This document shows positions 4,823 through 23,202 of a DNA stretch of 24,000 nt, in pieces. The stretch is taken from assembly GCF_026072635.1 (NCBI RefSeq), contig NZ_AP023081.1, forward strand, positions 3,373,850 to 3,397,849. The letters are read 5' to 3'. The stretch's first letter is position 1, and each line of letters opens with the position of its first letter. Made by a program: the position numbers and the translations under genes. The notes beneath the pieces were generated by a model. It had not been told where the DNA came from. It saw nothing but the letters and a program-made list of their open reading frames with translations, and searched no databases. The DNA is from Pseudomonas solani. Its GTDB lineage: Bacteria > Pseudomonadota > Gammaproteobacteria > Pseudomonadales > Pseudomonadaceae.

Positions 4823-6202
4823 TCACAGCAGCCGTATCAGGGCCGTCAGTTCTTCTTCGGGTATCAGTTGCCTGTCGCGCAGGCCTTCCAGGCGGGCCTT
4901 GAGTGGCGCGGCAGACGCCCAGTATCTGTTCGGTCGCCAGCGCTGACGCCAGGACTGGAACGCCTGTAGCCAGAGCTCGCGCTGGTCTTCAGCAGCGTTG
5001 CACAGGCCGTCCAGCAGGCTTTCCGACTGAGCGCCGGAGGGCAGCATCAGGATGAGGTGCAGGCTGCCCGGTATGTCCTCCACGGCACGACGGGCGATCT
5101 CTGCCTGCAGTGCCGGCTCGAATGCCGGGTGGCGCAGGCGCTTCAAGGCCAGGAGTGCCGCCACGATCACGCCCGGTGCGGCGTCGTCCAGCAGGACGAG
5201 GCTCGCCTCGCTTGCGTGTTCAGGGGCGAGCTCCATCAGCACCTGCAGGCCCTTGCGGCGTACGGAGGGCAGTGGCGTGGCGAGCGCCTGGTGGGCCAGC
5301 GGAACGGATTCCTCCATGCGCAGCTCAGCGGCCTGACCGAGCACGCCGTGCCAGTGCGCCCTGTCCTCCGGCAACTGCTCCAGGGCACGTCGCACCACGG
5401 CCGGGGCGTCGACGCCGTGGCGAGGCGCAGCCCAGCGCGCCAGGTCGCGAACGGCGGGCGAGCTGTCCAGCAGGGCCGTTTCCAGCCAGCTGTGCAGTTC
5501 TGCTGCGTCGGGTTCACCCTTGAGCAGCGCATACAGGGCCTTGGCGCGCAGGCGGCCGCTGCGGTCCATCAAGGCTCGGCGCCAGAGCGGGCCGGCCAAT
5601 TCGGACGGCGCCTTGCCCAGCGCGTCCATGGCCTGGGTGCGCAGGGTTGGATCGGGGTGTGCCAGGGCGGTCCCGAGCAGTTCGGCGTCGAGGTTGCCCT
5701 CCGCCATCAAGGTGCTGAAGACGAAGCGTGCCTCCCGCCCGCTCAGGCCTGGCAGCGCCTGAAGCAAGGTCGGGCGCAGCGCGGGCTCTCGCAGGCGTTC
5801 CTGGATGCTGGCCAGGGCCACGCTGTGGTCGGCGCGCATCTTGCGCTGCAGGTCCAGCAGCAGGTCGAGGTTGGCCAGCAGGCTCTCGGCAGACGCTGCG
5901 ACCAGACGTTGTTCCAGGGCACCCCGTGCCAGCTCGCGCAGGCTCGCTACTGAATCGTTCAGGCAGACGAGGCAATAGGCCAAAGCGGATTCGTCGCCCC
6001 GTTCGAGGTGCCGGCGCAGCACGCCCTCGCGGATGAAACCGTTGTGCTGCCGGGGCAGCTCGCGGGCGCTGAGGGCGACGCCGTTGGCCAGGGCGGTTTC
6101 GGCTTCGTCCAGCCGGTATCGCAGCCAGTCGGTGTATTCGCCGGCAGCCTGTTTCACGCGTAGCTGGTCCCGCCAATGGGCGAGCCATTGCGTTGTGTTC
6201 AT
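4823..6202 (-). CDS. HEAT/PBS-lyase-like helical repeat protein, function unknown (459 aa), inside the rtc operon
   Basis: Strong AAGGAG SD 8 nt upstream of the ATG at 6202. Recurrent units of the type D-x-x-x-x-(V/L)R-x-x-A-x-x-AL: HPDPTLRTQAMDALGKAP, LMDRSGRLRAKALYALLKG, LLDSSPAVRDLARWAA, TPLPSVRRKGLQVLMELAP, LLDDAAPGVIVAALLALKRLRHP. Same strand as rtcA, 40 nt upstream of it. Confidence 0.75.
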   Translation of the reverse strand: MNTTQWLAHWRDQLRVKQAAGEYTDWLRYRLDEAETALANGVALSARELPRQHNGFIREGVLRRHLERGDESALAYCLVCLNDSVASLRELARGALEQRLVAASAESLLANLDLLLDLQRKMRADHSVALASIQERLREPALRPTLLQALPGLSGREARFVFSTLMAEGNLDAELLGTALAHPDPTLRTQAMDALGKAPSELAGPLWRRALMDRSGRLRAKALYALLKGEPDAAELHSWLETALLDSSPAVRDLARWAAPRHGVDAPAVVRRALEQLPEDRAHWHGVLGQAAELRMEESVPLAHQALATPLPSVRRKGLQVLMELAPEHASEASLVLLDDAAPGVIVAALLALKRLRHPAFEPALQAEIARRAVEDIPGSLHLILMLPSGAQSESLLDGLCNAAEDQRELWLQAFQSWRQRWRPNRYWASAAPLKARLEGLRDRQLIPEEELTALIRLL

Positions 6203-6250
6203 TGGAGCTCTCCTTGGATGGGGATCAGGCCCAATCCCTGTCCCGCCGGC

Positions 6251-7156
6251 TTATGGCGTCGGGGCGGGTGTATTCAATAGCGGTGCCAGTGGCACGCTCT
6301 GTGGGCGCAGGGTCGCTGCGCAGTGGCCCAGGCGGGTGGTTTCCGCCTGGGCCTGGGAGGTGCTTTCCGCCACCTGCATCAGGGCGTAGCGGGTAGTGCC
6401 CGGGGTGCCGGTGTCGATGACCGCATAGGGCCCCAGGCACTCGGGCTGCCGGGTGCGTGAGGCATGGGCAGCGGTGATGCTGGCGTGGCGCTCGGCGATT
6501 ACCGCGAGCAGCGGCGCTGGCGGCGGAGTGGCGGCTTCGGCCAGGGCCGAGTGGTCGCCATTCCACTTCAGGTTGCGGGTTTCCAGGCGGTCTGGCGCGT
6601 TGTTCTCCGTGGCGTGGTAGCGCACCAGCAGCACCGGATTTTCACCGGTGGCGGCCAGCACCCAACTCTGGTTCGGCCCCGGGGCTTCGTCGTGGGACCA
6701 GGCCAGGCGCGGGCCCTGGGCCGTTGCCAGGTAGAGGGCGTGGCGGCGCTTGGGATGCTCGAAGCCTGCCATCTGGGTGACCAGCAGCGCCGGCTCGCCA
6801 TCCGCCAGCGGCAGCGGGCGTGCCGAAGCGCTGACCTGCCCTTCCTCCTCGCCGGTTATCCACACCCTTGGTTGGGCCGAAGCGCTCGCCAGGGGCGTAC
6901 TGGTGCCGTACAGGGGATCGGGCTCCGCTGGCTGGGCCGGTGCAGCCGTCGCCGACCAGGCCAGCGCCGCCGGGGCGCCCACCGGCTGGCCGCCACGCAA
7001 CAGGCGCAGCTCGAAGGGGCAGGGCGCCTGGGTGCAGGCGGGCAGCGACAGTTCGAAGGCCGTTGTAGCGTCCAGGGCGACGGTTTCCAGCCGCTGGCGC
7101 TCCTGGGCGGCCAGGCCGAGGAGCGCCGGCAGGGTGATAAGCAGTTTGAAGTCCAT
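6251..7156 (-). CDS. Hypothetical protein with signal-peptide-like N-terminus (301 aa), inside the rtc operon
   Basis: MDFKLLITLPALLGLAAQE (hydrophobic core plus an A-A-Q cleavage-like site). Natural-looking composition, unlike the R/G/A-rich opposite-strand ORF 6464..7333. GGGAG SD upstream. 29 nt downstream of the NTase gene. Confidence 0.65.
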   Translation of the reverse strand: MDFKLLITLPALLGLAAQERQRLETVALDATTAFELSLPACTQAPCPFELRLLRGGQPVGAPAALAWSATAAPAQPAEPDPLYGTSTPLASASAQPRVWITGEEEGQVSASARPLPLADGEPALLVTQMAGFEHPKRRHALYLATAQGPRLAWSHDEAPGPNQSWVLAATGENPVLLVRYHATENNAPDRLETRNLKWNGDHSALAEAATPPPAPLLAVIAERHASITAAHASRTRQPECLGPYAVIDTGTPGTTRYALMQVAESTSQAQAETTRLGHCAATLRPQSVPLAPLLNTPAPTP

Positions 7157-7185
7157 TTCCCGTGTTCTCCCTTTACTCGTTGGCG

Positions 7186-7983
7186 TCAGGCGGCGTGGGT
7201 CCGCACGCAGTGGCGCATGAATTCATCCAGCAGGGCGTCATCGCCCTCGCCCCGTGGCAGCTGTGGCGCTTCACCGGCGCTGGCCAGCTGGGTTTCGATG
7301 AAGGCGTGCAACACCTCGCGGCGAGGGCCGTAGGTGGCTTCGGTCCCCGCACGCTTGAGTTGCAGCAGCGCGTGTATTTCCTCCAGCAGTGCAGCGTCAT
7401 CCAGGGTCACCAGCAGGTCCTCGAAGGGCATCGGCGGGCGGCCGCGGCCTTGGTCGAGCCAGCGTACCGCCAGGAGCGGGCGCAGGACGTAGAGGTACTT
7501 CTTGAAACGCACGGTCTCGTCTTGCAGATAGCCCCGGAAGTTCTTCTTGGCCATGGACAGGTAGTGGTGACGCACGGCACGGGGCGACCAGAAGGCTTCG
7601 GCCAGTTCACGCAGGCGTGCGCTGGCGGCCTCGTCCTGGCGGTACACCAGAGGCGAGTCGAGCCATTCCAGCAGCGTGGGGTTGGAGTTGCGCAGCAGGC
7701 GCAGGGCCTTGCGCAGTTCCCAGCCGCTGACGTCCAGCTCGTCGTCCAGCGGGCGCTCGATCACGTCGCGCGGCTCACGCACCTGCAGGTACCAGTCGGG
7801 TTGCTCGACGTAGACGAAGCGCACGTCGTAGTCGCTGTCGCTGGAGGCGAAGCCCCAGGCGCGGCTGCCGGATTCGCAGGCGTAGAGCACGGTGACGTTG
7901 CGCTCGCGTTCGACCCGGTGCAGTTCCTCCAGCACCCGCTCGCGCATGGCGGCGGGGAGGGGATGGCGGTGGTCGCTGGTCAT
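7186..7983 (-). CDS. RlaP-type (RNA-ligase-associated) Pol-beta-fold nucleotidyltransferase (265 aa)
   Basis: Pol-beta NTase signature in LYACESGSRAWGFASSDSDYDVRFVY (G-S ... D-x-D), followed by the helical C-terminal region typical of the COG3541/PF10127 family that co-occurs with RtcB. AAAGGAAC SD. Confidence 0.85.
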   Translation of the reverse strand: MTSDHRHPLPAAMRERVLEELHRVERERNVTVLYACESGSRAWGFASSDSDYDVRFVYVEQPDWYLQVREPRDVIERPLDDELDVSGWELRKALRLLRNSNPTLLEWLDSPLVYRQDEAASARLRELAEAFWSPRAVRHHYLSMAKKNFRGYLQDETVRFKKYLYVLRPLLAVRWLDQGRGRPPMPFEDLLVTLDDAALLEEIHALLQLKRAGTEATYGPRREVLHAFIETQLASAGEAPQLPRGEGDDALLDEFMRHCVRTHAA

Positions 7984-8004
7984 TTCGTTGGTTCCTTTAC
8001 TGCT

Positions 8005-8583
8005 TCAATCGGTGGCGCTGGCGGCCAGCGCGCTGAGTGTTCGTCGTCTCGGGTTGTACAGGGTGAGGCACCAGATGCCCCACCATTCCTTGCCGTCATC
8101 GAAGTAGCTGCTCCAGGCGCTGCGCTGGGGTTCGTCGTCGGCGTTGCCCACCCAGTCCAGCACCTGCAGCCCTTCGCCGGCATGCAGCCGCAGGACCTCG
8201 CGCCATTCGCGGAAATCCTCCACCTGCAGCGTGCTGCCATAGGGCGGGCCGACCAGGGCCCGGTACAGCGGCCCATCGTCCCGCGCCAGGTCCTCGATGC
8301 GCGCGGCATCCAGGGCCTGCGGGCGGGCCCGGTCCAGGTCGGGGATCAGCTCCGGCCAGGGTTTATTGGCGTACTGCGGGTGTTCTTCCAGCAGCTTGCG
8401 GCGCCATGCCTGGGAGCGTTCGCGAATGCCTTCGAACAGCACCCGCAGCGCATCCTTGTGCTCGGCCTCGCCGGGGCGGGCGGTGGCATCCAGGCCCAGC
8501 ACGACGAAGTCGAAGACGCTGCCGGCTTCGTCGAGGCGGGCCTGGAGCTCCGTCACCCGGCGGTTTTCCAGTTTCTGCAGCAT
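8005..8583 (-). CDS. Hypothetical protein (192 aa; alternative start at 8598 gives 197 aa), first gene after rtcB
   Basis: The ATG at 8583 has AAGGGG 6 nt upstream; the ATG at 8598 has no SD. Trp-rich C-terminal half (DFREWREVLRLH, VLDWVGN, GKEWWGIWCLTLYNP). I recognise no family. Confidence 0.7.
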   Translation of the reverse strand: MLQKLENRRVTELQARLDEAGSVFDFVVLGLDATARPGEAEHKDALRVLFEGIRERSQAWRRKLLEEHPQYANKPWPELIPDLDRARPQALDAARIEDLARDDGPLYRALVGPPYGSTLQVEDFREWREVLRLHAGEGLQVLDWVGNADDEPQRSAWSSYFDDGKEWWGIWCLTLYNPRRRTLSALAASATD

Positions 8584-8642
8584 GAGTCGCCCCTTCATGA
8601 ATGTTGAAAAACGTTGGCGAGGCAGTCAGCGCAGATAGCTTT

Positions 8643-9866
8643 TCAACCTTTTACGCACACCACCTGGCGCAGGGTATGCACCACTTCCACCAGCTCGCGC
8701 TGGGCATGCATCACGGCGTCGATATCCTTGTAGGCCATGGGGATTTCGTCGATCACGTCTTCGTCCTTGCGGCATTCCACATGGGCGGTGGCGCGGATCT
8801 GGTCTTCCACGGTGAACAGTTTCTTCGCCTTGGTACGGCTCATGGTGCGACCGGCACCGTGGCTGCAGGAGCAAAACGCCTCCTCGTTACCCAGGCCGCG
8901 CACGATGAAGCTGCGCGCGCCCATGGAGCCCGGGATGATCCCCAGCTGGCCCTTCTGCGCCGATACCGCACCTTTGCGGGTTACCAGGACCTCCTGGCCG
9001 AAGTGCTGCTCCTTCTGCACGTAGTTGTGGTGGCAGTTCACTGCCTCCAGGTTGGCCTCGAAGGGCTTGGTGATCACCTGGCGTGCTGCAGCGATCACGG
9101 CATGCATCATCATCGCTCGGTTCTGCTTGGCGAAGTCCTGGGCCCAGCTCACGGCTTCCACGTAGTCGTCGAAGTGCTCGCTGCCTTCTTCGAAGTAGGC
9201 CAGGTCGCGGTCCGGCAGGTTGGCGATGTGCTGGCGCATATCGGCCTGGGCCAGTTCGATGAACAGGTTGCCGATGGCGTTACCTACGCCGCGCGATCCG
9301 CTGTGGAGCATGAACCAGACGCGCTGTGCTTCGTCCAGGCAGACCTCGATGAAGTGGTTACCGGTTCCCAGGGTTCCCAGGTGCTTGCGGTTGTTGGTCT
9401 TCTCCAGGCGCGGGTACTTATCGGTGATCACCTTGAAGCGCCCGGCCAGGGCCGACCAGGCGTGGTCCGCCAGCTCCGGCACGTCTTCCCAGGCGCCTTT
9501 GTCTCGGCCACCGCGGGAAACGCTACGCCCGTGGGGCACGGCTCTTTCGATGGCGCTTCGCAGGCCGGCCAGGTTATCCGGCAGGTCGGAGGCGGTCAGC
9601 GAGGTGCGCGCGGCGATCATTCCGCAACCGATGTCCACGCCCACGGCGGCCGGGATGATGGCGCCGACGGTGGGGATCACGCTGCCGATGGTCGACCCCT
9701 TACCCAGGTGCACGTCCGGCATCACGGCCAGGTGCTTGAAGATGAAGGGCATCTGCGCGGTGTTCATCAGCTGCTTGCGCGCGTCGTCCTCCACCGGTAC
9801 GCCCTGGGTCCAGAGCTTGATCGGTTTGCCGTTGGCGACTTCCAGCAGGTTGTAGTGCTTTTCCAT
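8643..9866 (-). CDS. rtcB: RNA-splicing ligase RtcB (408 aa)
   Basis: MEKHYNLLEVANGKPIKLWT start with AAAGGAAC SD. Metal/GMP-site motifs PDVHLGKG, DIGCGM, HSGSRGVGN, CHHNY, PGSMG, SCSHGAGR. The six-frame ORF extends to 10064 only because the ncRNA region has no in-frame stop. Confidence 0.97.
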   Translation of the reverse strand: MEKHYNLLEVANGKPIKLWTQGVPVEDDARKQLMNTAQMPFIFKHLAVMPDVHLGKGSTIGSVIPTVGAIIPAAVGVDIGCGMIAARTSLTASDLPDNLAGLRSAIERAVPHGRSVSRGGRDKGAWEDVPELADHAWSALAGRFKVITDKYPRLEKTNNRKHLGTLGTGNHFIEVCLDEAQRVWFMLHSGSRGVGNAIGNLFIELAQADMRQHIANLPDRDLAYFEEGSEHFDDYVEAVSWAQDFAKQNRAMMMHAVIAAARQVITKPFEANLEAVNCHHNYVQKEQHFGQEVLVTRKGAVSAQKGQLGIIPGSMGARSFIVRGLGNEEAFCSCSHGAGRTMSRTKAKKLFTVEDQIRATAHVECRKDEDVIDEIPMAYKDIDAVMHAQRELVEVVHTLRQVVCVKG

Positions 9867-9891
9867 GTTCTCGTTCCTTTCAATTTCAAAA

Positions 9892-10008
9892 CGGCGACAA
9901 CTGAGGTGAAACGTGCATCGCGCTCTATCCGTTGAGCTACGGCCCCGAAGAGCCGGCGGGAGTCGAACCCGCAACCACGACGTCCTGTAGTTCCACCGGC
10001 ATTCGCCG
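9892..10008 (-). ncRNA. Y-RNA-like module 5 (YrlA-type, complete permuted tRNA-like domain)
   Basis: Minus-strand RNA, in order. Closing helix CGGCGA/UCGCCG. Conserved 5' AUGC. Helix GGUGGAAC/GUUUCACC (8 bp). Helix CGUCG/CGAUG. Variable-loop-like UGGUU. T-arm GCGGG-UUCGACU-CCCGC. Acceptor-like hairpin CGGCUC-UUCG-GGGCCG. D-arm GCUC-AACGGAUA-GAGC. Conserved 3' UUGUCG. Confidence 0.72.
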
Positions 10009-10040
10009 GGTCGATCCTTTGGCCATTCGATGGCCCTGGT

Positions 10041-10147
10041 GCAGCGACGAGGTGACGCGGACATGAGACTGCTCTACCCACTGAGCTACCCGTTGCCGGG
10101 GCGGGGTTCGAACCCGCGACCAATGTAATGTCCGCTGCATTCGCTGC
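10041..10147 (-). ncRNA. Y-RNA-like module 4 (YrlA-type, complete permuted tRNA-like domain)
   Basis: Closing helix GCAGCGA/UCGCUGC. AUGCA. Helix GCGGACAU/AUGUCCGC (8 bp). UGGUC. T-arm GCGGG-UUCGAAC-CCCGC. Acceptor-like CCCG-GCAA-CGGG (GNRA tetraloop). D-arm GCUC-AGUGGGUA-GAGC. Confidence 0.72.
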
Positions 10148-10176
10148 CGGCCCATGCGGGCCGTGGTGAAACAGGT

Positions 10177-10305
10177 GCGACGACAAAAGGTGGTGAAACG
10201 TTTTCGTGTTCTACCGTTGAACTACGGCCCCGCAGTATTGGAGCCGACGGGATTCGAACCCGCATCTCGACCGTGGAAGGGTGTAGTTCCACCGGCATTC
10301 GTCGC
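10177..10305 (-). ncRNA. Y-RNA-like module 3 (YrlA-type, complete permuted tRNA-like domain)
   Basis: Closing helix GCGACGA/UCGUCGC (7 bp). AUGCC. Helix GGUGGAAC/GUUUCACC. T-arm GCGGG-UUCGAAU-CCCGU. 7-bp acceptor-like stem CGGCUCC/GGGGCCG closed by AAUACUGC. D-arm GUUC-AACGGUA-GAAC. 3' CACCUUUUGUCG. Shares an identical 20-mer with module 5 (plus strand TGTAGTTCCACCGGCATTCG at 9986..10005 and 10282..10301). Confidence 0.72.
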
Positions 10306-10317
10306 AAAACTCAAGGT

Positions 10318-10405
10318 GGCACGACAATGGAAGGCGACTGTTCCGCGTTGCCGCGGGCCGGAATCGAACCGGCTCAACCGATGTACAGCCACCTGCATTC
10401 GTGCC
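10318..10405 (-). ncRNA. Y-RNA-like module 2 (T-arm and acceptor-like hairpin, no D-arm)
   Basis: Closing helix GGCACGA/UCGUGCC. AUGCA. Helix GGUGGC/GUCGCC (with G-U pairs). T-arm GCCGG-UUCGAUU-CCGGC. Acceptor-like CCGCG-GCAA-CGCGG (GNRA). Only AACA where the D-arm would be. 3' CAUUGUCG. Confidence 0.62.
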
Positions 10406-10413
10406 GCGCGCTA

Positions 10414-10467
10414 CGGTGACAAAGGTGTGCAGGGACATCGGTGATGTAGTCCCGGCTGCATTCGCCG
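10414..10467 (-). ncRNA. Y-RNA-like module 1 (short hairpin, YrlB-like, no tRNA-like domain)
   Basis: Closing helix CGGCGA/UCACCG (one C-A mismatch). AUGCA motif. Inner helices UGCA/UGCA and GGGAC/GUCCC. Same 3' motif CACCUUUGUC as modules 3 and 5. Confidence 0.5.
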
Positions 10468-10524
10468 TCTCGCGCTTCAACTCGTTGCGGGCCCCGCCCC
10501 ATTGCGGGGCCCTTCATCTTTTCG

Positions 10525-12075
10525 CTACAGCTCGGTCGCCTCGATCAGCTCGACCCAGTGCCGCGCGCCGTATTCGCCGCTGGCGAACTGGGCGACCACA
10601 TCGAATACCGCATCGCCGAAACCGCCGACGTTGAGGATGTCAGCCCTCTCCTGCGCCTGGGTGGTGCCGTAGGGCTGGATGTCGATGCAGACCATCTTCG
10701 CCTTCGGGTTCAGCCGCTTCAGCTGCTGCCACTGGAGCATGGTTTCGGTGGCGCCGCGACGCTTGGCGTCGATCCAGGATTCGTTGTCGGAAACCAGGAT
10801 CAGCGTATCCACCTTGGCCTTCTCCTTCACCAGCTGCGCCAGCGGTGCCGAGCAGTTGGTACCACCGCCGCCGATCGAGGCCAGCTTCTGCGCGTTGCTC
10901 ATCACGCTGTCACGCGGGTTGAGTCGCACGTTCACCACGTGGTTCTCGAACGGCATCACTCGCGCCATCGGCTGCTTGCGCAGTACCGCTGCGGCCATCA
11001 GCGCCGCCACGTCGATGCAGCGCACGGTGCTGGTGGCGCCCGGGCGGTAGCCGGTGGCCGGGCTCTGCATGGAGCCGGACACGTCCGGGCACACCACCAC
11101 GTTGCCCCGCAGCGCCGGCACATTGGCCAGCGACATTTCCAGCGCGTCCTGCAGCGCCTCGCGCACCGGCTCCGGTACTTCGCTGCCGGCCATCTTGTAG
11201 GCAGTCAGCAACTGGTACGGGTAGACCCGTGCCTTGGCCACCGCTTCCCGGTCCGCCAGCCGCGCGGCAACCGTGTAGGCCGCGCCGCGCAACTGGAACA
11301 CACCGTGGCGTGCCAGGGTGTTGAGGTTCATCCGCAGTGCCTGCCAGCCCATTCGCTGTGCCTGTACCAGCCACTGTTCAGCGCTCAGCTGACGGTCACC
11401 CAGCAATTGGAAGGGCACGTCCGGCAGCTCGTCGCTGGCGCCGCTGCGGTAAGCCAGCAGGGCGCGGGTCAGCGGCGGCAGCGCGTCGGCGTCCGCCGGC
11501 TTGCCGAGTACCCAGGCGAAGAAGGCTTCACGCCAGGCTTCGCTCGGTTTCGGGTGAACCATCTTCAGCACGTCCGCCAGGGACGGTTGGTTGCCGATCG
11601 CGGTTTGCAGCAGTTGTCGCTCGCTGGCGGTGTTCAGCCACTCCTGTACCAGTCGCTTGGGTTGTGAACCGAGCGATTTACGGCCGGTCACACCGCTGCG
11701 CAGGATCTGCACGACGTTGCGCAGCATCTTGCCGTTATCCACCACCTGGCCGAAAACTGCCGGCAGCAGGGAGGAGCGTTGCGCCGCCAGAGCGGCCACC
11801 AGCAGGGCCGGCATGTCCTTCATGTGGCCGGCACGACGGGCGTACACGGCGGTCTTGGCCACGAAGGCCGCGTCCAGTTGAGCCACCAGGGCCAGGACCT
11901 CGGCCAGTTGCTCGGGAGCGTCGGCGTAGAAGGTCTGGTTCAGGCAACCGGTCATCGCCAGTTGCGCCAGCTTGTGCTTCGGCTGCAGGGCGTAGGCGCC
12001 GGCCTGGCTGTGGTTCAGTGCATCCACCTGCGGCAGGCCTGCTGCCTGGGTGTTGAAGAGTGCGGTGTTGGCCAT
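10525..12075 (-). CDS. rsr: Rsr, bacterial Ro 60-kDa autoantigen orthologue (TROVE + vWA domains, 516 aa)
   Basis: TROVE-like N-terminal two-thirds (LNQTFYADAPEQL, AVYARRAGHMKDMPALLVAAL). C-terminal vWA with MIDAS motif VVVCPDVSGSM and a later LILVSDNESW strand. Context next to Y-RNA-like RNAs and rtcB matches the Salmonella rsr-yrlBA-rtcBA arrangement. Confidence 0.93.
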   Translation of the reverse strand: MANTALFNTQAAGLPQVDALNHSQAGAYALQPKHKLAQLAMTGCLNQTFYADAPEQLAEVLALVAQLDAAFVAKTAVYARRAGHMKDMPALLVAALAAQRSSLLPAVFGQVVDNGKMLRNVVQILRSGVTGRKSLGSQPKRLVQEWLNTASERQLLQTAIGNQPSLADVLKMVHPKPSEAWREAFFAWVLGKPADADALPPLTRALLAYRSGASDELPDVPFQLLGDRQLSAEQWLVQAQRMGWQALRMNLNTLARHGVFQLRGAAYTVAARLADREAVAKARVYPYQLLTAYKMAGSEVPEPVREALQDALEMSLANVPALRGNVVVCPDVSGSMQSPATGYRPGATSTVRCIDVAALMAAAVLRKQPMARVMPFENHVVNVRLNPRDSVMSNAQKLASIGGGGTNCSAPLAQLVKEKAKVDTLILVSDNESWIDAKRRGATETMLQWQQLKRLNPKAKMVCIDIQPYGTTQAQERADILNVGGFGDAVFDVVAQFASGEYGARHWVELIEATEL

Positions 12076-12116: not shown

Positions 12117-12133
12117 AGCGAGCGGCGTGCCAG
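12117..12133 (-). promoter_or_regulatory. Sigma-54 (-24/-12) promoter of the rsr-Y RNA-rtcB...rtcA operon
   Basis: Minus strand reads CTGGCACGCCGCTCGCTAT. TGGCACG-N4-TCGCT has the correct GG-N10-GC spacing against the consensus TGGCACG-N4-TTGCW. It lies 42-57 nt upstream of the rsr ATG and faces away from rtcR, which encodes a sigma-54 activator. Confidence 0.72.
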
Positions 12134-12174: not shown

Positions 12175-12317
12175 TATAAGTATTTAATTTTTATGCCCGC
12201 TGAATCCAAGGATCTCCATGGCGGCAGTCGTCATGGATATTCATATTCTTTGATATACGGATTTATCTTTTTGGATAAAATCGCCGTCACTGACGCGCCC
12301 TCGACAAGGACATGCCA

Positions 12318-12926
12318 ATGCGCTTTTCACTTTTTCTCGTCTTCAGCCTGTTTGCCGGCCTGGCCCAGGCGGTGCCGCTGCCCGAGGTGCACGAGGGCGA
12401 CATCATCTTCCACCAATCGCGCTCGGCGCAGAGCCTGGCGGTGCAGCAGGCCACCCACTCGCGCTACAGCCACATGGGGCTGGTGCTGGCGCGCAACGGC
12501 ACGCTGCAGGTGTTCGAGGCGGGGGCGAAGGTGCAGTACGTGCCGCTGCAGCACTGGATCGCCCGGGGCGAGGGTGGGCACTACGTGATCAAGCGGCTGG
12601 CCCGTGCCGATGAGCTGCTGACCCCTGACGTGCTGGTGCAGATGCGCCAGTTGGCGGAGGGCATGCGCGGGCGTCGCTATGACCTGGCCTTCGAGTGGAA
12701 TGACCAGCGCCTGTATTGCTCGGAGCTGGTGTGGAAGCTCTACGAGCGCAGCCTCGGCCTGCGCCTGGGCGAGCTGCAGCGCATCCGCGATTTCGACCTG
12801 AGTTCGCCGGTGGTAAAGGCGAAGATGCGCGAGCGCTACGGCCAGGCCATCCCGCTGGACGAGACCGTGGTATCGCCGGTGGCGATCTTCGAGTCGCCCC
12901 TGCTGATCACCGTGGCGCAGCACTGA
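12318..12926 (+). CDS. YiiX-family permuted papain-fold (NlpC/P60 superfamily) protein with signal peptide (202 aa; alternative ATG at 12312)
   Basis: MRFSLFLVFSLFAGLAQA signal peptide. GDIIFHQS...SHMGLV and the later RYDLAFEWNDQRLYCSELVWKLY (Cys after His, i.e. permuted order) fit the YiiX/DUF830-type pattern. AAGGA lies 7 nt upstream of 12318. Confidence 0.8.
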   Translation: MRFSLFLVFSLFAGLAQAVPLPEVHEGDIIFHQSRSAQSLAVQQATHSRYSHMGLVLARNGTLQVFEAGAKVQYVPLQHWIARGEGGHYVIKRLARADELLTPDVLVQMRQLAEGMRGRRYDLAFEWNDQRLYCSELVWKLYERSLGLRLGELQRIRDFDLSSPVVKAKMRERYGQAIPLDETVVSPVAIFESPLLITVAQH

Positions 12927-12928
12927 GC

Positions 12929-14533
12929 ATGGCGCGCAAGACCGTCGCCATCGGCTTTATCGGCGCCACCCTGGACCGCATGGGCAAGGGCGCCGAGCGC
13001 TGGAACAAGTGGCGCCCCAGCGTCGGCCTGTGCCAGCAGCCGGATCTGCTGCTGGACCGCCTGGAGCTGATCCACGGCAGCGATGCCCGCGACCTAGGGC
13101 TGGCCCAGCGCATCAAGGGCGATGTGGAGCAGGTGTCGCCGCAGACCGAGGTGGTGCTGCACGAGATGCCGCTGCACAACCCCTGGGACTTCGAGGAGGT
13201 GTATGCGGCGCTGCACGACTTCGCCAGTGCCTACCGCTTCGATACCGAGCGCGAGGACTACCTGGTGCACATCACCACCGGGACCCACGTAGCGCAGATC
13301 TGCTGGTTCCTGCTCACCGAGGCGCGTTACCTGCCGGCGCGCCTGGTGCAGACCTCGCCGGCCCGCCGCCGCGACGAGGATCGCCACGCCATCGGTACCC
13401 ACTCGCTGATCGACCTCGACCTGTCGCGCTACGACCATATCGCCTCGCGCTTTCAGCGCGAGATGCTGGAGAGCCTGGCGCTGCTGAAGTCCGGCATCGC
13501 CACGCGCAACGCGGCGTTCAACCGCAGCATCGAGCAGATCGAGCGGGTGGCGCTGCGTTCCCGCGCGCCCATGCTGCTGGTGGGGCCGACCGGGGCGGGC
13601 AAGTCGTTCCTGGCGCGGCGCATCTTCGAGCTGAAGGATGCGCGCCACCAGATCAAGGGCCGCTTCGTCGAGGTGAACTGCGCGACCCTGCGCGGCGACG
13701 GCGCGATGTCGGCGCTGTTCGGCCATATCAAGGGCGCCTTCACCGGCGCGCAGAACGCCCGCGATGGCCTGCTGCGCGCGGCGGACGGCGGCATGCTGTT
13801 CCTCGACGAGATCGGCGAGCTGGGCCTCGACGAGCAGGCCATGTTGCTCAAGGCCATCGAGGAGAAGCGCTTCTTCCCCATGGGCTCGGACCGTGAGGTG
13901 GAAAGCGATTTCCTGCTGATCGCCGGCACCCACCGCGACCTGCGCACGCGGGTGACCGAGGGGCTGTTCCGCGAAGACCTCTATGCCCGTATCAACCTCT
14001 GGACCTTCGAACTGCCGGGCCTGGCCGGGCGCCGCGAGGACATCGAGCCGAACATCGATTTCGAACTGGAACGCCACGCCCGCGAGCAGGGGCGCATGGT
14101 GCGCTTCAACGTCGAGGCGCGGCGCCGCTACCTGGCCTTCGCCTGTTCGGGGGAAGCGCGCTGGGCGGGCAACTTCCGCGAGCTGTCGGCCTCGATCACG
14201 CGCATGGCGACCCTGGCCGACAGCGGCCGCATCGACGAGGTGTTGGTGCAGGAGGAGATCGACCGCCTGCGCTACGCCTGGGGCGCCCAGGGGCAGGCGG
14301 ATGATGGCCTGGCGGCGCTGCTCGGCGAGCGGGTGGTGGAGCTGGACCGCTTCGACCGCCTGCAGCTGGCGGCGGTGGTCGCGGTGTGCCGCGAGGCGAG
14401 CAGCCTGTCCGAGGCGGGGCGGCTGCTCTATGACGTCTCGCGCCAGGCCAAGGCGCAGCCCAATGATGCCGACCGGCTGCGCAAGTACCTGGCGCGGTTC
14501 GGCCTGGAGTGGAAGGACCTGGCCGCCGGGTAG
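12929..14533 (+). CDS. rtcR: RtcR, sigma-54-dependent transcriptional activator with N-terminal CARF-type sensor domain (534 aa)
   Basis: MARKTVAIGFIGATLDRMGKG...WRPSV N-terminus typical of RtcR. AAA+ core with Walker A GPTGAGKS, sigma-54 contact loop GAFTGA, Walker B LFLDEIGEL. The ATG lies 2 nt after the yiiX-like stop. The upstream part of ORF 12716..14533 overlaps the yiiX-like CDS and is rejected. Confidence 0.95.
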   Translation: MARKTVAIGFIGATLDRMGKGAERWNKWRPSVGLCQQPDLLLDRLELIHGSDARDLGLAQRIKGDVEQVSPQTEVVLHEMPLHNPWDFEEVYAALHDFASAYRFDTEREDYLVHITTGTHVAQICWFLLTEARYLPARLVQTSPARRRDEDRHAIGTHSLIDLDLSRYDHIASRFQREMLESLALLKSGIATRNAAFNRSIEQIERVALRSRAPMLLVGPTGAGKSFLARRIFELKDARHQIKGRFVEVNCATLRGDGAMSALFGHIKGAFTGAQNARDGLLRAADGGMLFLDEIGELGLDEQAMLLKAIEEKRFFPMGSDREVESDFLLIAGTHRDLRTRVTEGLFREDLYARINLWTFELPGLAGRREDIEPNIDFELERHAREQGRMVRFNVEARRRYLAFACSGEARWAGNFRELSASITRMATLADSGRIDEVLVQEEIDRLRYAWGAQGQADDGLAALLGERVVELDRFDRLQLAAVVAVCREASSLSEAGRLLYDVSRQAKAQPNDADRLRKYLARFGLEWKDLAAG

Positions 14534-14620: not shown

Positions 14621-15181
14621 ATGAACCTCCCTCACTCCGTCGAGCAACTGCGCGAGCGCTGCGCGGCGGGAGAATCCTTCGATTACCTGTACTTCTGGGG
14701 CCACAGCAGCGCCCCCGGCGCGCCGCTGGGCAAGGCCTGTTTCAGCCAGTGGTTCAAGTCGCCCTTCACCCTGGATGGCGTGCGCTACGCCACCGCCGAG
14801 CACTGGATGATGGCCGGCAAGGCACGCCTGTTCGGGGATGAGCAGGCGCTGGAGCGCATCCTCGCCGCCCGTACGCCGGCCGATGCCAAGGCGCTCGGTC
14901 GCGAGGTCCGTGGTTTCGATGACGCCCGCTGGCGGACCCACAGCTTCGACCTGGTGGTAGAGGGCAATCTCGGCAAGTTCGAGCAGAACCCCGACATGCA
15001 ACGGGTGCTGCTGGGCACCGGCACCAAGGTGCTGGTGGAGGCCAGCCCGGTGGACCCGGTCTGGGGCATCGGCCTGGCCGAGGCGGACGCGGCGGCGCGT
15101 GAGCCTGCCACCTGGCGTGGCCTCAACCTGCTGGGCTTCGCCTTGATGCAGGTGCGTGAGCGATTGGGAGGGCAGGCCTGA
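14621..15181 (+). CDS. NADAR (YbiA/DUF1768) family protein (186 aa)
   Basis: FYFWGH...FSQW...F..DG..Y.TAEHWMMAGKARLF...VEASP.D..WGIGL pattern characteristic of the NADAR/YbiA family. AAGGA SD. Confidence 0.9.
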   Translation: MNLPHSVEQLRERCAAGESFDYLYFWGHSSAPGAPLGKACFSQWFKSPFTLDGVRYATAEHWMMAGKARLFGDEQALERILAARTPADAKALGREVRGFDDARWRTHSFDLVVEGNLGKFEQNPDMQRVLLGTGTKVLVEASPVDPVWGIGLAEADAAAREPATWRGLNLLGFALMQVRERLGGQA

Positions 15182-23063: not shown

Positions 23064-23202
23064 GCCTTCTCGGGGTGATTGCCGGGCGCGTCGTCCCTGA
23101 CGGCCCGGGAACCGGTGGAGGCGCCTTTGCCTCCGCTCGCACGGCTGGTGCCCCGGGGCACCAACCATGCGGATGACGCGTCCTGCGTCATCTGAACCCC
23201 TC

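Follow-up and report, generated by a model that had tools for sequence, protein, structure and literature searches.

A probable array of five tandem Y RNA genes in the rsr-rtcB spacer of Pseudomonas solani

The subject of this study is the spacer between rsr, which encodes the Ro60 orthologue Rsr, and the RNA ligase gene rtcB in Pseudomonas solani. We analysed it in a window of 24,000 nt from contig NZ_AP023081.1 (positions 3,373,850 to 3,397,849), and all coordinates below are those of the window. The spacer occupies 9867-10524 (658 nt), and we consider it very likely that it holds five tandem genes for bacterial Y RNAs. An earlier reading of the same DNA, made from the sequence without database searches (the original prediction), had described Y-RNA-like modules here. 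This identity is borne out by matches to the Rfam YrlA model, by the mutual detection of the modules with two covariance models, and by covariation in related loci. All five modules lie on the rsr strand (the minus strand of the window), 58-633 nt 3' of the rsr stop codon, and they are numbered Y1 to Y5 in transcription order.

Five modules built to one plan

The heptamer GCATTCG had been reported at 9999, 10137, 10295, 10395, and 10458 on the plus strand of the spacer, and all five positions are exact. Five further copies occur in the window, on the opposite strand and elsewhere. In shuffled sequence, the two strands of 24 kb together contain 4.9 copies. At this rate, one strand of the 658-nt spacer should hold about 0.07, and the Poisson probability of finding five copies there is about 1e-8. 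In addition, a repeat search returned one five-copy family, TGTA-N9-GCATTCG-N3, with start-to-start spacings of 138, 158, 100, and 63 nt, and a second family of four copies, which is the T arm of a tRNA-like domain.

The five modules share one plan. A closing helix of 6-7 bp ends in CGA and is followed by AUGC, a helix 2 of 7-8 bp, and YUACA; beyond the apical part, helix 2 is completed by its 3' strand, and a pyrimidine-rich stretch leads to the UUGUCG that closes the first helix. The repeats, helices, and motifs agree with the earlier description of five consecutive minus-strand modules of common design, and the closing helices quoted in it are present, GCGACGA...UCGUCGC in Y3 and GCAGCGA...UCGCUGC in Y4. 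Furthermore, the limits that it gave for the array (9892-10467) are those of the modules themselves, since Y5 has its 3' end at 9892 and Y1 its 5' end at 10467. The definition of YrlA includes a 5' motif, GNCGAAN0-1G, inside the end-to-end helix, and this motif is the presumed Rsr site (Chen et al. 2014). CGAAUGC is identical in all five modules, and the upstream G of the published GNCGAA is found only in Y1 and Y5.

The apical parts differ among the modules. Y3, Y4, and Y5 carry, in this order, a T arm (GCGGG-UUCGANN-CCCGY), a closed hairpin, and a D arm (UAGYUCA...AGARC), and this permuted tRNA-like domain is the defining feature of YrlA. Meanwhile, Y2 has a T arm and a hairpin, and Y1 has a plain hairpin. 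The original prediction was right about the Y RNA architecture; it had overlooked the tRNA-like domain, with T and D arms in Y3-Y5 and the T arm only in Y2.

Y1 (10414-10467, minus strand) is a minimal Y RNA hairpin of 54 nt. Its closing helix CGGCGA/UCACCG contains a C.A mismatch and is followed by AUGC, an 8-bp helix 2, and a loop starting with CUACAU, without any tRNA-like domain. Y2 (10319-10404, minus strand) is a Y RNA of 86 nt with a partial tRNA-like domain, in which the closing helix GCACGA/UCGUGC and an 8-bp helix 2 support a perfect T arm (10357-10373) and a GNRA-capped hairpin, and there is no D arm. The remaining three are Y RNAs of the YrlA type on the same strand. Y3 (10178-10304, 127 nt) has the closing helix CGACGA/UCGUCG, helix 2, a closed acceptor-like stem, a T arm at 10247-10263, and a D arm at 10208-10224. 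Y4 (10042-10146, 105 nt) has the closing helix CAGCGA/UCGCUG, the acceptor-like stem CCCG-GCAA-CGGG, a T arm at 10101-10117, and a D arm at 10071-10088. Y5 (9892-10008, 117 nt) has the closing helix CGGCGA/UCGCCG, an acceptor-like stem, a T arm at 9956-9972, and a D arm at 9922-9939; its 3' end lies 25 nt before the ATG of rtcB.

Family membership and cross-detection

Two Rfam families were used for comparison, YrlA (RF02553, gathering threshold 69 bits) and the Salmonella family YrlB (RF02565, gathering threshold 97 bits). With the YrlA model, Y5 (82.2 bits, E 5.7e-18) and Y4 (75.7 bits) scored above gathering. With the YrlB model, the best match was 22.5 bits over the Y2 region, and Y1 gave none. 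The YrlB family has orthologues in Salmonella serovars only (PMC4201824). By analogy, Y1 and Y2 would be short Y RNAs of the YrlB type in their role, and not sequence members of the Salmonella YrlB family.

We also used two covariance models trained on related loci. R2 was trained on 87 full modules, with Y1 and Y2 outside the training set, and R1 was trained on 30 short hairpins. R2 found Y2 (48.8 bits, E 3e-11) and Y1 (31.9 bits, E 9.5e-7). Meanwhile, R1 found Y3 (39.2 bits, E 4.5e-9), Y5 (36.2 bits, E 3.2e-8), and Y2, with E values of about 1e-8 to 1e-9. Over the whole 24 kb, neither model gave anything below E 0.01 beyond the modules.

Covariation and folding

The modules of the related loci were aligned with MAFFT, without fitting to structure, as full modules (A1, 87 sequences), Y1-type modules (A2, 30 sequences), and Y2-type modules (A3, 44 sequences). 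RNAalifold on the raw alignments recovered only some of the helices; helix 2 was absent from its result for A1, and the closing helix from that for A2. Therefore, the structures were supplied by hand and checked with 500 shuffles and with slid controls. The proportion of paired cells was 96.2% in A1, 95.3% in A3, and 91.1% in A2, and both sides had changed in 15 of 25, 11 of 22, and 10 of 14 pairs, respectively. In each of the three alignments, none of the 500 shuffles reached the observed pairing or covariation score; in A2, two of the 500 reached the count of pairs changed on both sides. When the 3' partner was slid by 1-3 columns, pairing fell to 17-60%.

For the closing helix, 97% of cells were paired among the 87 full modules, three of its six pairs had changed on both sides, and the three outer pairs showed such double changes in 15-21 sequences. 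Covariation supports all helices, and in the closing helices, whose covariation across orthologous spacers the original prediction had named as a check, it is present in A1, A2, and A3 alike. In addition, the predicted folds of Y2 and Y4 gave z values of -3.35 and -2.28 against shuffles. The five modules are one RNA family, with purifying selection on structure.

An additional hairpin was found in Y3 (10269-10281, minus strand), where ACC-CUUCCAC-GGU stands right after the conserved CUAC. A covarying 3-bp stem with a 7-nt loop occurs at this place in 42 of the 45 distinct full modules that have a long insert after YUAC, including Y3, and the stems include ACC/GGU, UCG/CGA, UCA/UGA, AUC/GAU, and AGC/GCU. 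Furthermore, 37 of these 42 loops fit Y-U-NNN-R-M, the anticodon-loop rule, with a variable NNN. The region of this hairpin is called the "less-conserved V stem-loop" in the literature, and Salmonella YrlA is reported to be without an anticodon loop (10.1101/312249).

The array in related loci

A search with Rsr gave 80 loci, which belong to Pseudomonas sensu lato and to betaproteobacteria. Among them, Metapseudomonas otitidis is the closest relative, with 95% identity in Rsr and 91% in the spacer. R2 (E <= 0.01) gave 298 matches in the 80 loci, all on the rsr strand and all downstream of rsr; rtcB falls inside the fetched stretch in 72 loci, and in all of these the matches lie upstream of it. 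All 298 matches, like the five modules of P. solani, stand within 4 kb of a Ro60/Rsr orthologue on the same strand, which is the location used in defining YrlA. At the Rfam gathering score, two or three modules per array were labelled in the loci with any label.

The number of modules per locus was one (3 loci), two (4 loci), three (30 loci), four (22 loci), five (18 loci), six (2 loci), or seven (1 locus), and these counts are lower bounds, with a few short members under the threshold. A five-copy array, which the original prediction had set apart from the two RNAs of Salmonella, is therefore not exceptional. An exact-motif scanner used on the same loci missed Y1 orthologues reading CUGAAUGC and made some spurious nested calls, and it was replaced by the covariance-model search.

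The order of the array is also shared. By length, the positions run about 54, 74-86, about 127, about 104, and about 116 nt, and the closing-helix signatures of Y2 to Y5 are GCACGA, CGACGA, CAGCGA, and CGGCGA. This order and these signatures recur in Metapseudomonas and several other Pseudomonas strains. They also recur in Ectopseudomonas and Phytopseudomonas, where Y1 comes from the motif scan only. Three modules are kept in the fluorescens/koreensis group. Array positions keep their own orthologues, alike in length and signature, where Rsr is only 73-78% identical, and the linkers diverge. Because order, lengths, and signatures recur across Pseudomonas lineages, the paralogues appear to be old and orthologous by position, and their duplication appears to be ancient and not local.

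The original prediction had instead proposed local duplication and diversification, on the ground of a 20-mer common to its modules 3 and 5. The 20-mer exists (9986-10005 = 10282-10301), but it is the family consensus CGAAUGCCGGUGGAACUACA. We rejected a recent local duplication on this point and on the position-specific orthologues found across genera.

Some loci have arrays of other composition. For instance, the locus of Chitinimonas lacunae (L070) holds six short hairpin modules and no full tRNA-like module, and two other loci (L018 and L042) have two modules each, both short. In P. ovata (L044), a pair of short modules is duplicated ahead of one full module. In addition, one locus (L051) had the look of a duplicated block in the motif scan.

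Points against the assignment and the status of the short modules

Several results weigh against five Y RNA genes. With the Rfam YrlA model, Y3 reached 64.9 bits (E 1.7e-14), just under the threshold, and Y2 reached 34.5 bits (E 1e-5, with the D arm deleted), far under it; Y1 had no match to any Rfam model. The predicted fold of Y1 is no better than shuffles (z = -0.66), and its C.A mismatch falls at a pair that is C-G in all full modules (86 of 86 two-letter cells). No module has a promoter or terminator of its own, so discrete RNAs would depend wholly on processing. Furthermore, the partner of the tRNA-like domain has not been identified even in model organisms (10.1101/312249).

The Rfam covariance-model search, which had also been proposed as a check, thus has a divided outcome. 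YrlA membership holds for two of the five modules by threshold (Y4 and Y5) and for three by the tRNA-like domain (Y3-Y5), and Y3 is a YrlA member by every feature but a 4-bit shortfall.

The status of the two short modules could be read in another way, namely that function is confined to Y3-Y5 and that Y1 and Y2 are duplicated copies in decay. We think this rather unlikely. It would fit with the failure of both modules at the Rfam thresholds, with the mismatch and the poor fold of Y1, and with the loss of the D arm in Y2, whose second hairpin is absent in one Pseudomonas group and whose T loop is degenerate in another. However, modules of both types keep their position and length across lineages as distant as those with 73-78% Rsr identity, and their helices covary. 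In addition, only short modules were found in some loci, such as that of Chitinimonas lacunae and the two loci with a pair of short modules, and the YrlB RNAs of Salmonella and Mycobacterium smegmatis are short and bound by Rsr (PMC4201824).

The mismatch of Y1 itself can be followed through its orthologues, which occupy the first array position in most Pseudomonas loci. At pair 4 of the closing helix, most Pseudomonas have U-A (CUGAAUGC...GUCAG) and Ectopseudomonas has C-G; the C.A of this window is shared by its closest relative (seen with L001 and L029). The mismatch looks like a half-compensated substitution rather than decay, and this also speaks against Y1 being a remnant.

Proposed transcription and processing, and possible roles of the array

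The original prediction had assigned the array to one transcript under the control of RtcR. A predicted promoter of the sigma-54 type, with the -24/-12 element TGGCACGCCGCTCGC, was found at 12118-12132 (minus strand) as a pattern match with one mismatch. The element, TGGCAC-N5-CTCGC, stands 43 nt upstream of the rsr ATG. Among 78 related loci, 71 have TGGCAY-N5-YYGC before rsr, in most cases at a distance of 53-60 nt from its start codon. Between 8000 and 13000, no sigma-70-like promoter and no operon-strand terminator were found. In its sequence, the locus shows the features expected of the operon: a divergent rtcR, the predicted sigma-54 promoter before rsr, and rtcB downstream on the same strand. 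The conservation of the predicted promoter and the lack of an operon-strand terminator support the single transcript, and it is plausible that the array is cotranscribed with rsr and rtcB and processed.

Three hairpins flank the modules. A GC-rich hairpin of 9 bp lies just after the rsr stop codon (10489-10512, minus strand; -23.1 kcal/mol, z = -3.8). Its structure, and not its sequence, is kept in 14 loci, with six of eight pairs changed on both sides, and it may be a 3' stabiliser or a processing boundary. It was also considered as an intrinsic terminator and rejected, since it scores on the plus strand only and the operon strand has no U tract. In the Y3-Y4 linker, the hairpin GGCCCG-CAUG-GGCC (10148-10163, minus strand; -12.1 kcal/mol, z = -2.5) has counterparts of other sequence at the same place in most, not all, related spacers. 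The hairpin of the Y4-Y5 linker, GGCCAU-CGA-AUGGCC (10021-10035, minus strand), is weak (z = -1.5), and GC hairpins of other sequence occur there in related loci.

These features suggest the following course. The array would be transcribed together with rsr and rtcB from the RtcR-dependent sigma-54 promoter, and the operon transcript would be cut into RNAs of about 55-130 nt, with the GC hairpins of the linkers perhaps marking processing boundaries. Each RNA would then bind the Rsr ring by the basal module that all five share (the CGA closing helix, AUGC, helix 2, and UUGUCG), which serves as the Ro60/Rsr binding site in Y RNAs that have been characterised. Each would present a different apical module to partner proteins, as the Deinococcus radiodurans Y RNA does in tethering Rsr and PNPase. 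For Rsr binding, for processing into discrete RNAs, and for function, we infer from the analogy with Salmonella and Mycobacterium.

The apical half of Y3-Y5 appears, from its sequence, to mimic the elbow of tRNA. It is conceivable, though we would not expect it, that the five positions represent a conserved division of labour and not redundancy, with each Y RNA giving Rsr a different apical adaptor. In that case, the adaptors may be none, a T arm only, and three distinct tRNA elbows. RtcR is switched on by the tRNA fragments that anticodon nucleases produce, and if the Y3 loop mimics an anticodon loop, Y3 could be a decoy for these nucleases or a sensor of them, or it could deliver Rsr and RtcB to cleaved tRNAs. 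The dimeric-tRNA origin model predicts an anticodon arm, and another possibility is that the Y3 hairpin is either a relic of this arm or a functional mimic.

The same arrangement would also suit an array that acts in cis, as a structured part of the operon mRNA to which Rsr binds at up to five sites. In this case, the array would be a multivalent scaffold or would feed back on the stability or translation of rtcB, and any released RNAs would be by-products. The missing internal promoters and terminators, the position of the modules between probably cotranscribed genes with Y5 ending so close to the rtcB start, and the structured hairpins at their flanks are all in keeping with it. However, the homologous modules of Salmonella and M. 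smegmatis are cut from a precursor and accumulate as separate RNAs bound by Rsr (PMC4201824), and the 5' and 3' ends of each module pair with one another, which is what an excised unit should show. We regard a cis-acting array as improbable as the sole explanation; it is compatible with the five modules being Y RNA genes.

tRNA-derived and coding explanations

We give very little credence to the modules being degenerate tRNA genes or tRNA-derived repeats without a function of their own. Their T and D arms are almost of tRNA consensus, and weak Rfam matches to tmRNA, mascRNA, and viral tRNA-like models were seen over the modules; these matches are partial and are caused by the T arm and the adjacent stem. 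Meanwhile, ARAGORN found no tRNA in the 24-kb window. Furthermore, the T arm stands before the D arm, the acceptor-like stem is closed, and there is no full anticodon arm, and we rejected tRNA genes on these grounds. The basal module, which is not of tRNA kind, is the most conserved part and covaries, and in the 80 loci the modules are confined to the rsr-rtcB spacer.

In one related locus (L005, 6846-6984), the Rfam tRNA model just passed (30.4 bits against 29) across two modules, and this would speak for a tRNA origin. In this call, the D arm comes from one Y module and the T arm from the module after it. The L005 case is the mirror image of a dimeric-tRNA false positive against which Chen et al. 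2014 cautioned. Joining of this type could give spurious tRNA calls in such arrays.

The least probable explanation, which we dismiss, is that the spacer encodes one or more small proteins in overlapping open reading frames (ORFs) of 72-96 aa: several ORFs of 44-139 aa were called on both strands in 9767-10517, and they are intact in the closest relative (L001), but the high G+C content gives long spurious ORFs throughout the window, RNA structure accounts for the pattern of conservation, and ORFs mapped onto more distant orthologous spacers gain stops and frameshifts. Among L003-L055 (orthologues about 75% identical), the indels that are not a multiple of three range from 16 of 17 to 25 of 27, and in the five most distant loci they are 17-20 of 24-26. 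The earlier statement that the 658-nt gap has no credible coding sequence agrees with these broken ORFs, and no conserved protein-coding signal was found across the orthologous spacers.

Neighbouring genes

The gene rsr (10525-12075, minus strand) encodes 516 aa with the Pfam domains vWA_Ro60 (6e-21) and TROVE (4e-10), and residues 9-501 match the NCBIfam model RNA-bind_Rsr at 96.8 bits, under its equivalog cut-off. The gene rtcB (8643-9866, minus strand) encodes an RNA ligase of 407 aa (Pfam RtcB, 4e-133) that is 98% identical to its M. otitidis orthologue. Upstream of rsr, rtcR is divergent, and its product has an RtcR domain and a Sigma54_activat domain. The rtcR ORF as called (12716-14533, 605 aa) overlaps another ORF at 12312-12926. 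As residue 74 of this ORF is the first of the RtcR domain, the true start of RtcR probably lies near 12930.

The overlapping ORF (12312-12926, plus strand) lies between the rsr promoter and rtcR. It encodes 204 aa with a signal-peptide-like N terminus and a Peptidase_C92 domain (YaeF/YiiX permuted papain-like amidase). Just 3' of rtcR, a NADAR-domain protein is encoded at 14621-15181 (plus strand; Pfam 6.4e-54).

The ORFs scanned beyond rtcB (4823-8598, minus strand) include no recognisable rtcA. The four ORFs of this stretch are an unassigned one of 197 aa (8005-8598), which comes first, an RlaP-family "RNA repair pathway" nucleotidyltransferase (7186-7983; Pfam 3.5e-99), another unassigned one of 301 aa (6251-7156), and a weakly HEAT-like one of 459 aa (4823-6202). 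Elsewhere in the window, the Rfam model RsmW (RF02809) matched at 23073-23197 (minus strand) with 72.4 bits (gathering score 52). This small RNA of the Rsm family is unconnected with the Y RNA array.

Comparison with known systems and significance

The closest known system is that of Salmonella, in which rsr-yrlBA-rtcBA form one operon controlled by RtcR and induced by tRNA fragments (PMC7790460), and YrlA and YrlB are bound by Rsr (PMC4201824). The position of the array beside rsr, which the original prediction had compared with Salmonella yrlB and yrlA, corresponds to the same gene order. In Salmonella Typhimurium, as here, rsr, the Y RNAs, and rtcB lie on one strand, with a divergent RtcR and sigma-54 (PMC7790460), and the short Y RNA comes first and the tRNA-like one after it. 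The RNAs also share the 5' CGAAUG, the closing helix, the T arm, the closed acceptor-like stem, and the D arm (PMC4201824). However, there are two RNAs in Salmonella, whereas the five here comprise three full YrlA paralogues, a T-arm-only intermediate, and Y1, which the Salmonella YrlB model does not recognise. In addition, Salmonella has rtcA, whereas the RlaP-family nucleotidyltransferase and unassigned ORFs follow rtcB here.

In M. smegmatis, processing of one precursor yields two Y RNAs, of which the short YrlB has a possible T arm (PMC4201824). Several Y RNAs adjoin rsr in both species, and the short YrlB resembles Y2 in keeping this arm (PMC4201824). However, the Y RNAs lie upstream of rsr in M. 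smegmatis and downstream of it here, and YrlA is cleaved by RNase P in M. smegmatis. Unlike those of M. smegmatis, the acceptor-like stems here are short closed hairpins, some with GNRA loops.

In D. radiodurans, more than one Y RNA (Yrn1 and Yrn2) is likewise found near rsr (PMC4201824), and a Y RNA tethers Rsr to PNPase. The basal helix of the Y RNA binds Rsr and the apical module tethers the effector, which by analogy may serve as a model for the array of P. solani. However, Yrn1 is limited to a T-like stem-loop with partial D features, and searches give no sequence homologues of it (PMC4201824). The metazoan Y RNAs (human Y1, Y3, Y4, and Y5) are also a small paralogous family with one Ro60-binding basal helix and varied apical modules. 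They differ in being RNA polymerase III transcripts of separate genes without a tRNA-like domain, and their motif is GGUCCGA instead of the CGAAUGC found here (PMC4201824).

Chen et al. 2014 listed 355 YrlA candidates in 276 genomes, all of them where several stood near rsr, and named Pseudomonas fulva. Y RNA multiplicity was therefore already known in principle. A conserved ordered array with short members was not found described in the literature covered, which left aside the supplementary tables and the 2018 review.

The array does not represent a new type of element. An ordered array of three to seven Y RNAs is the normal state in Pseudomonas and related betaproteobacteria, and the arrays include short members that public models miss. 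For annotation, this means that three of the five genes here stay unlabelled by Rfam at gathering thresholds. The function of bacterial Ro60 and Y RNAs beside the RtcB ligase is an open question (PMC7790460, 10.1101/312249). The natural series in this array, from no tRNA-like domain through a T arm only to three full elbows, offers a route to what the domain recruits and to whether the partners differ.

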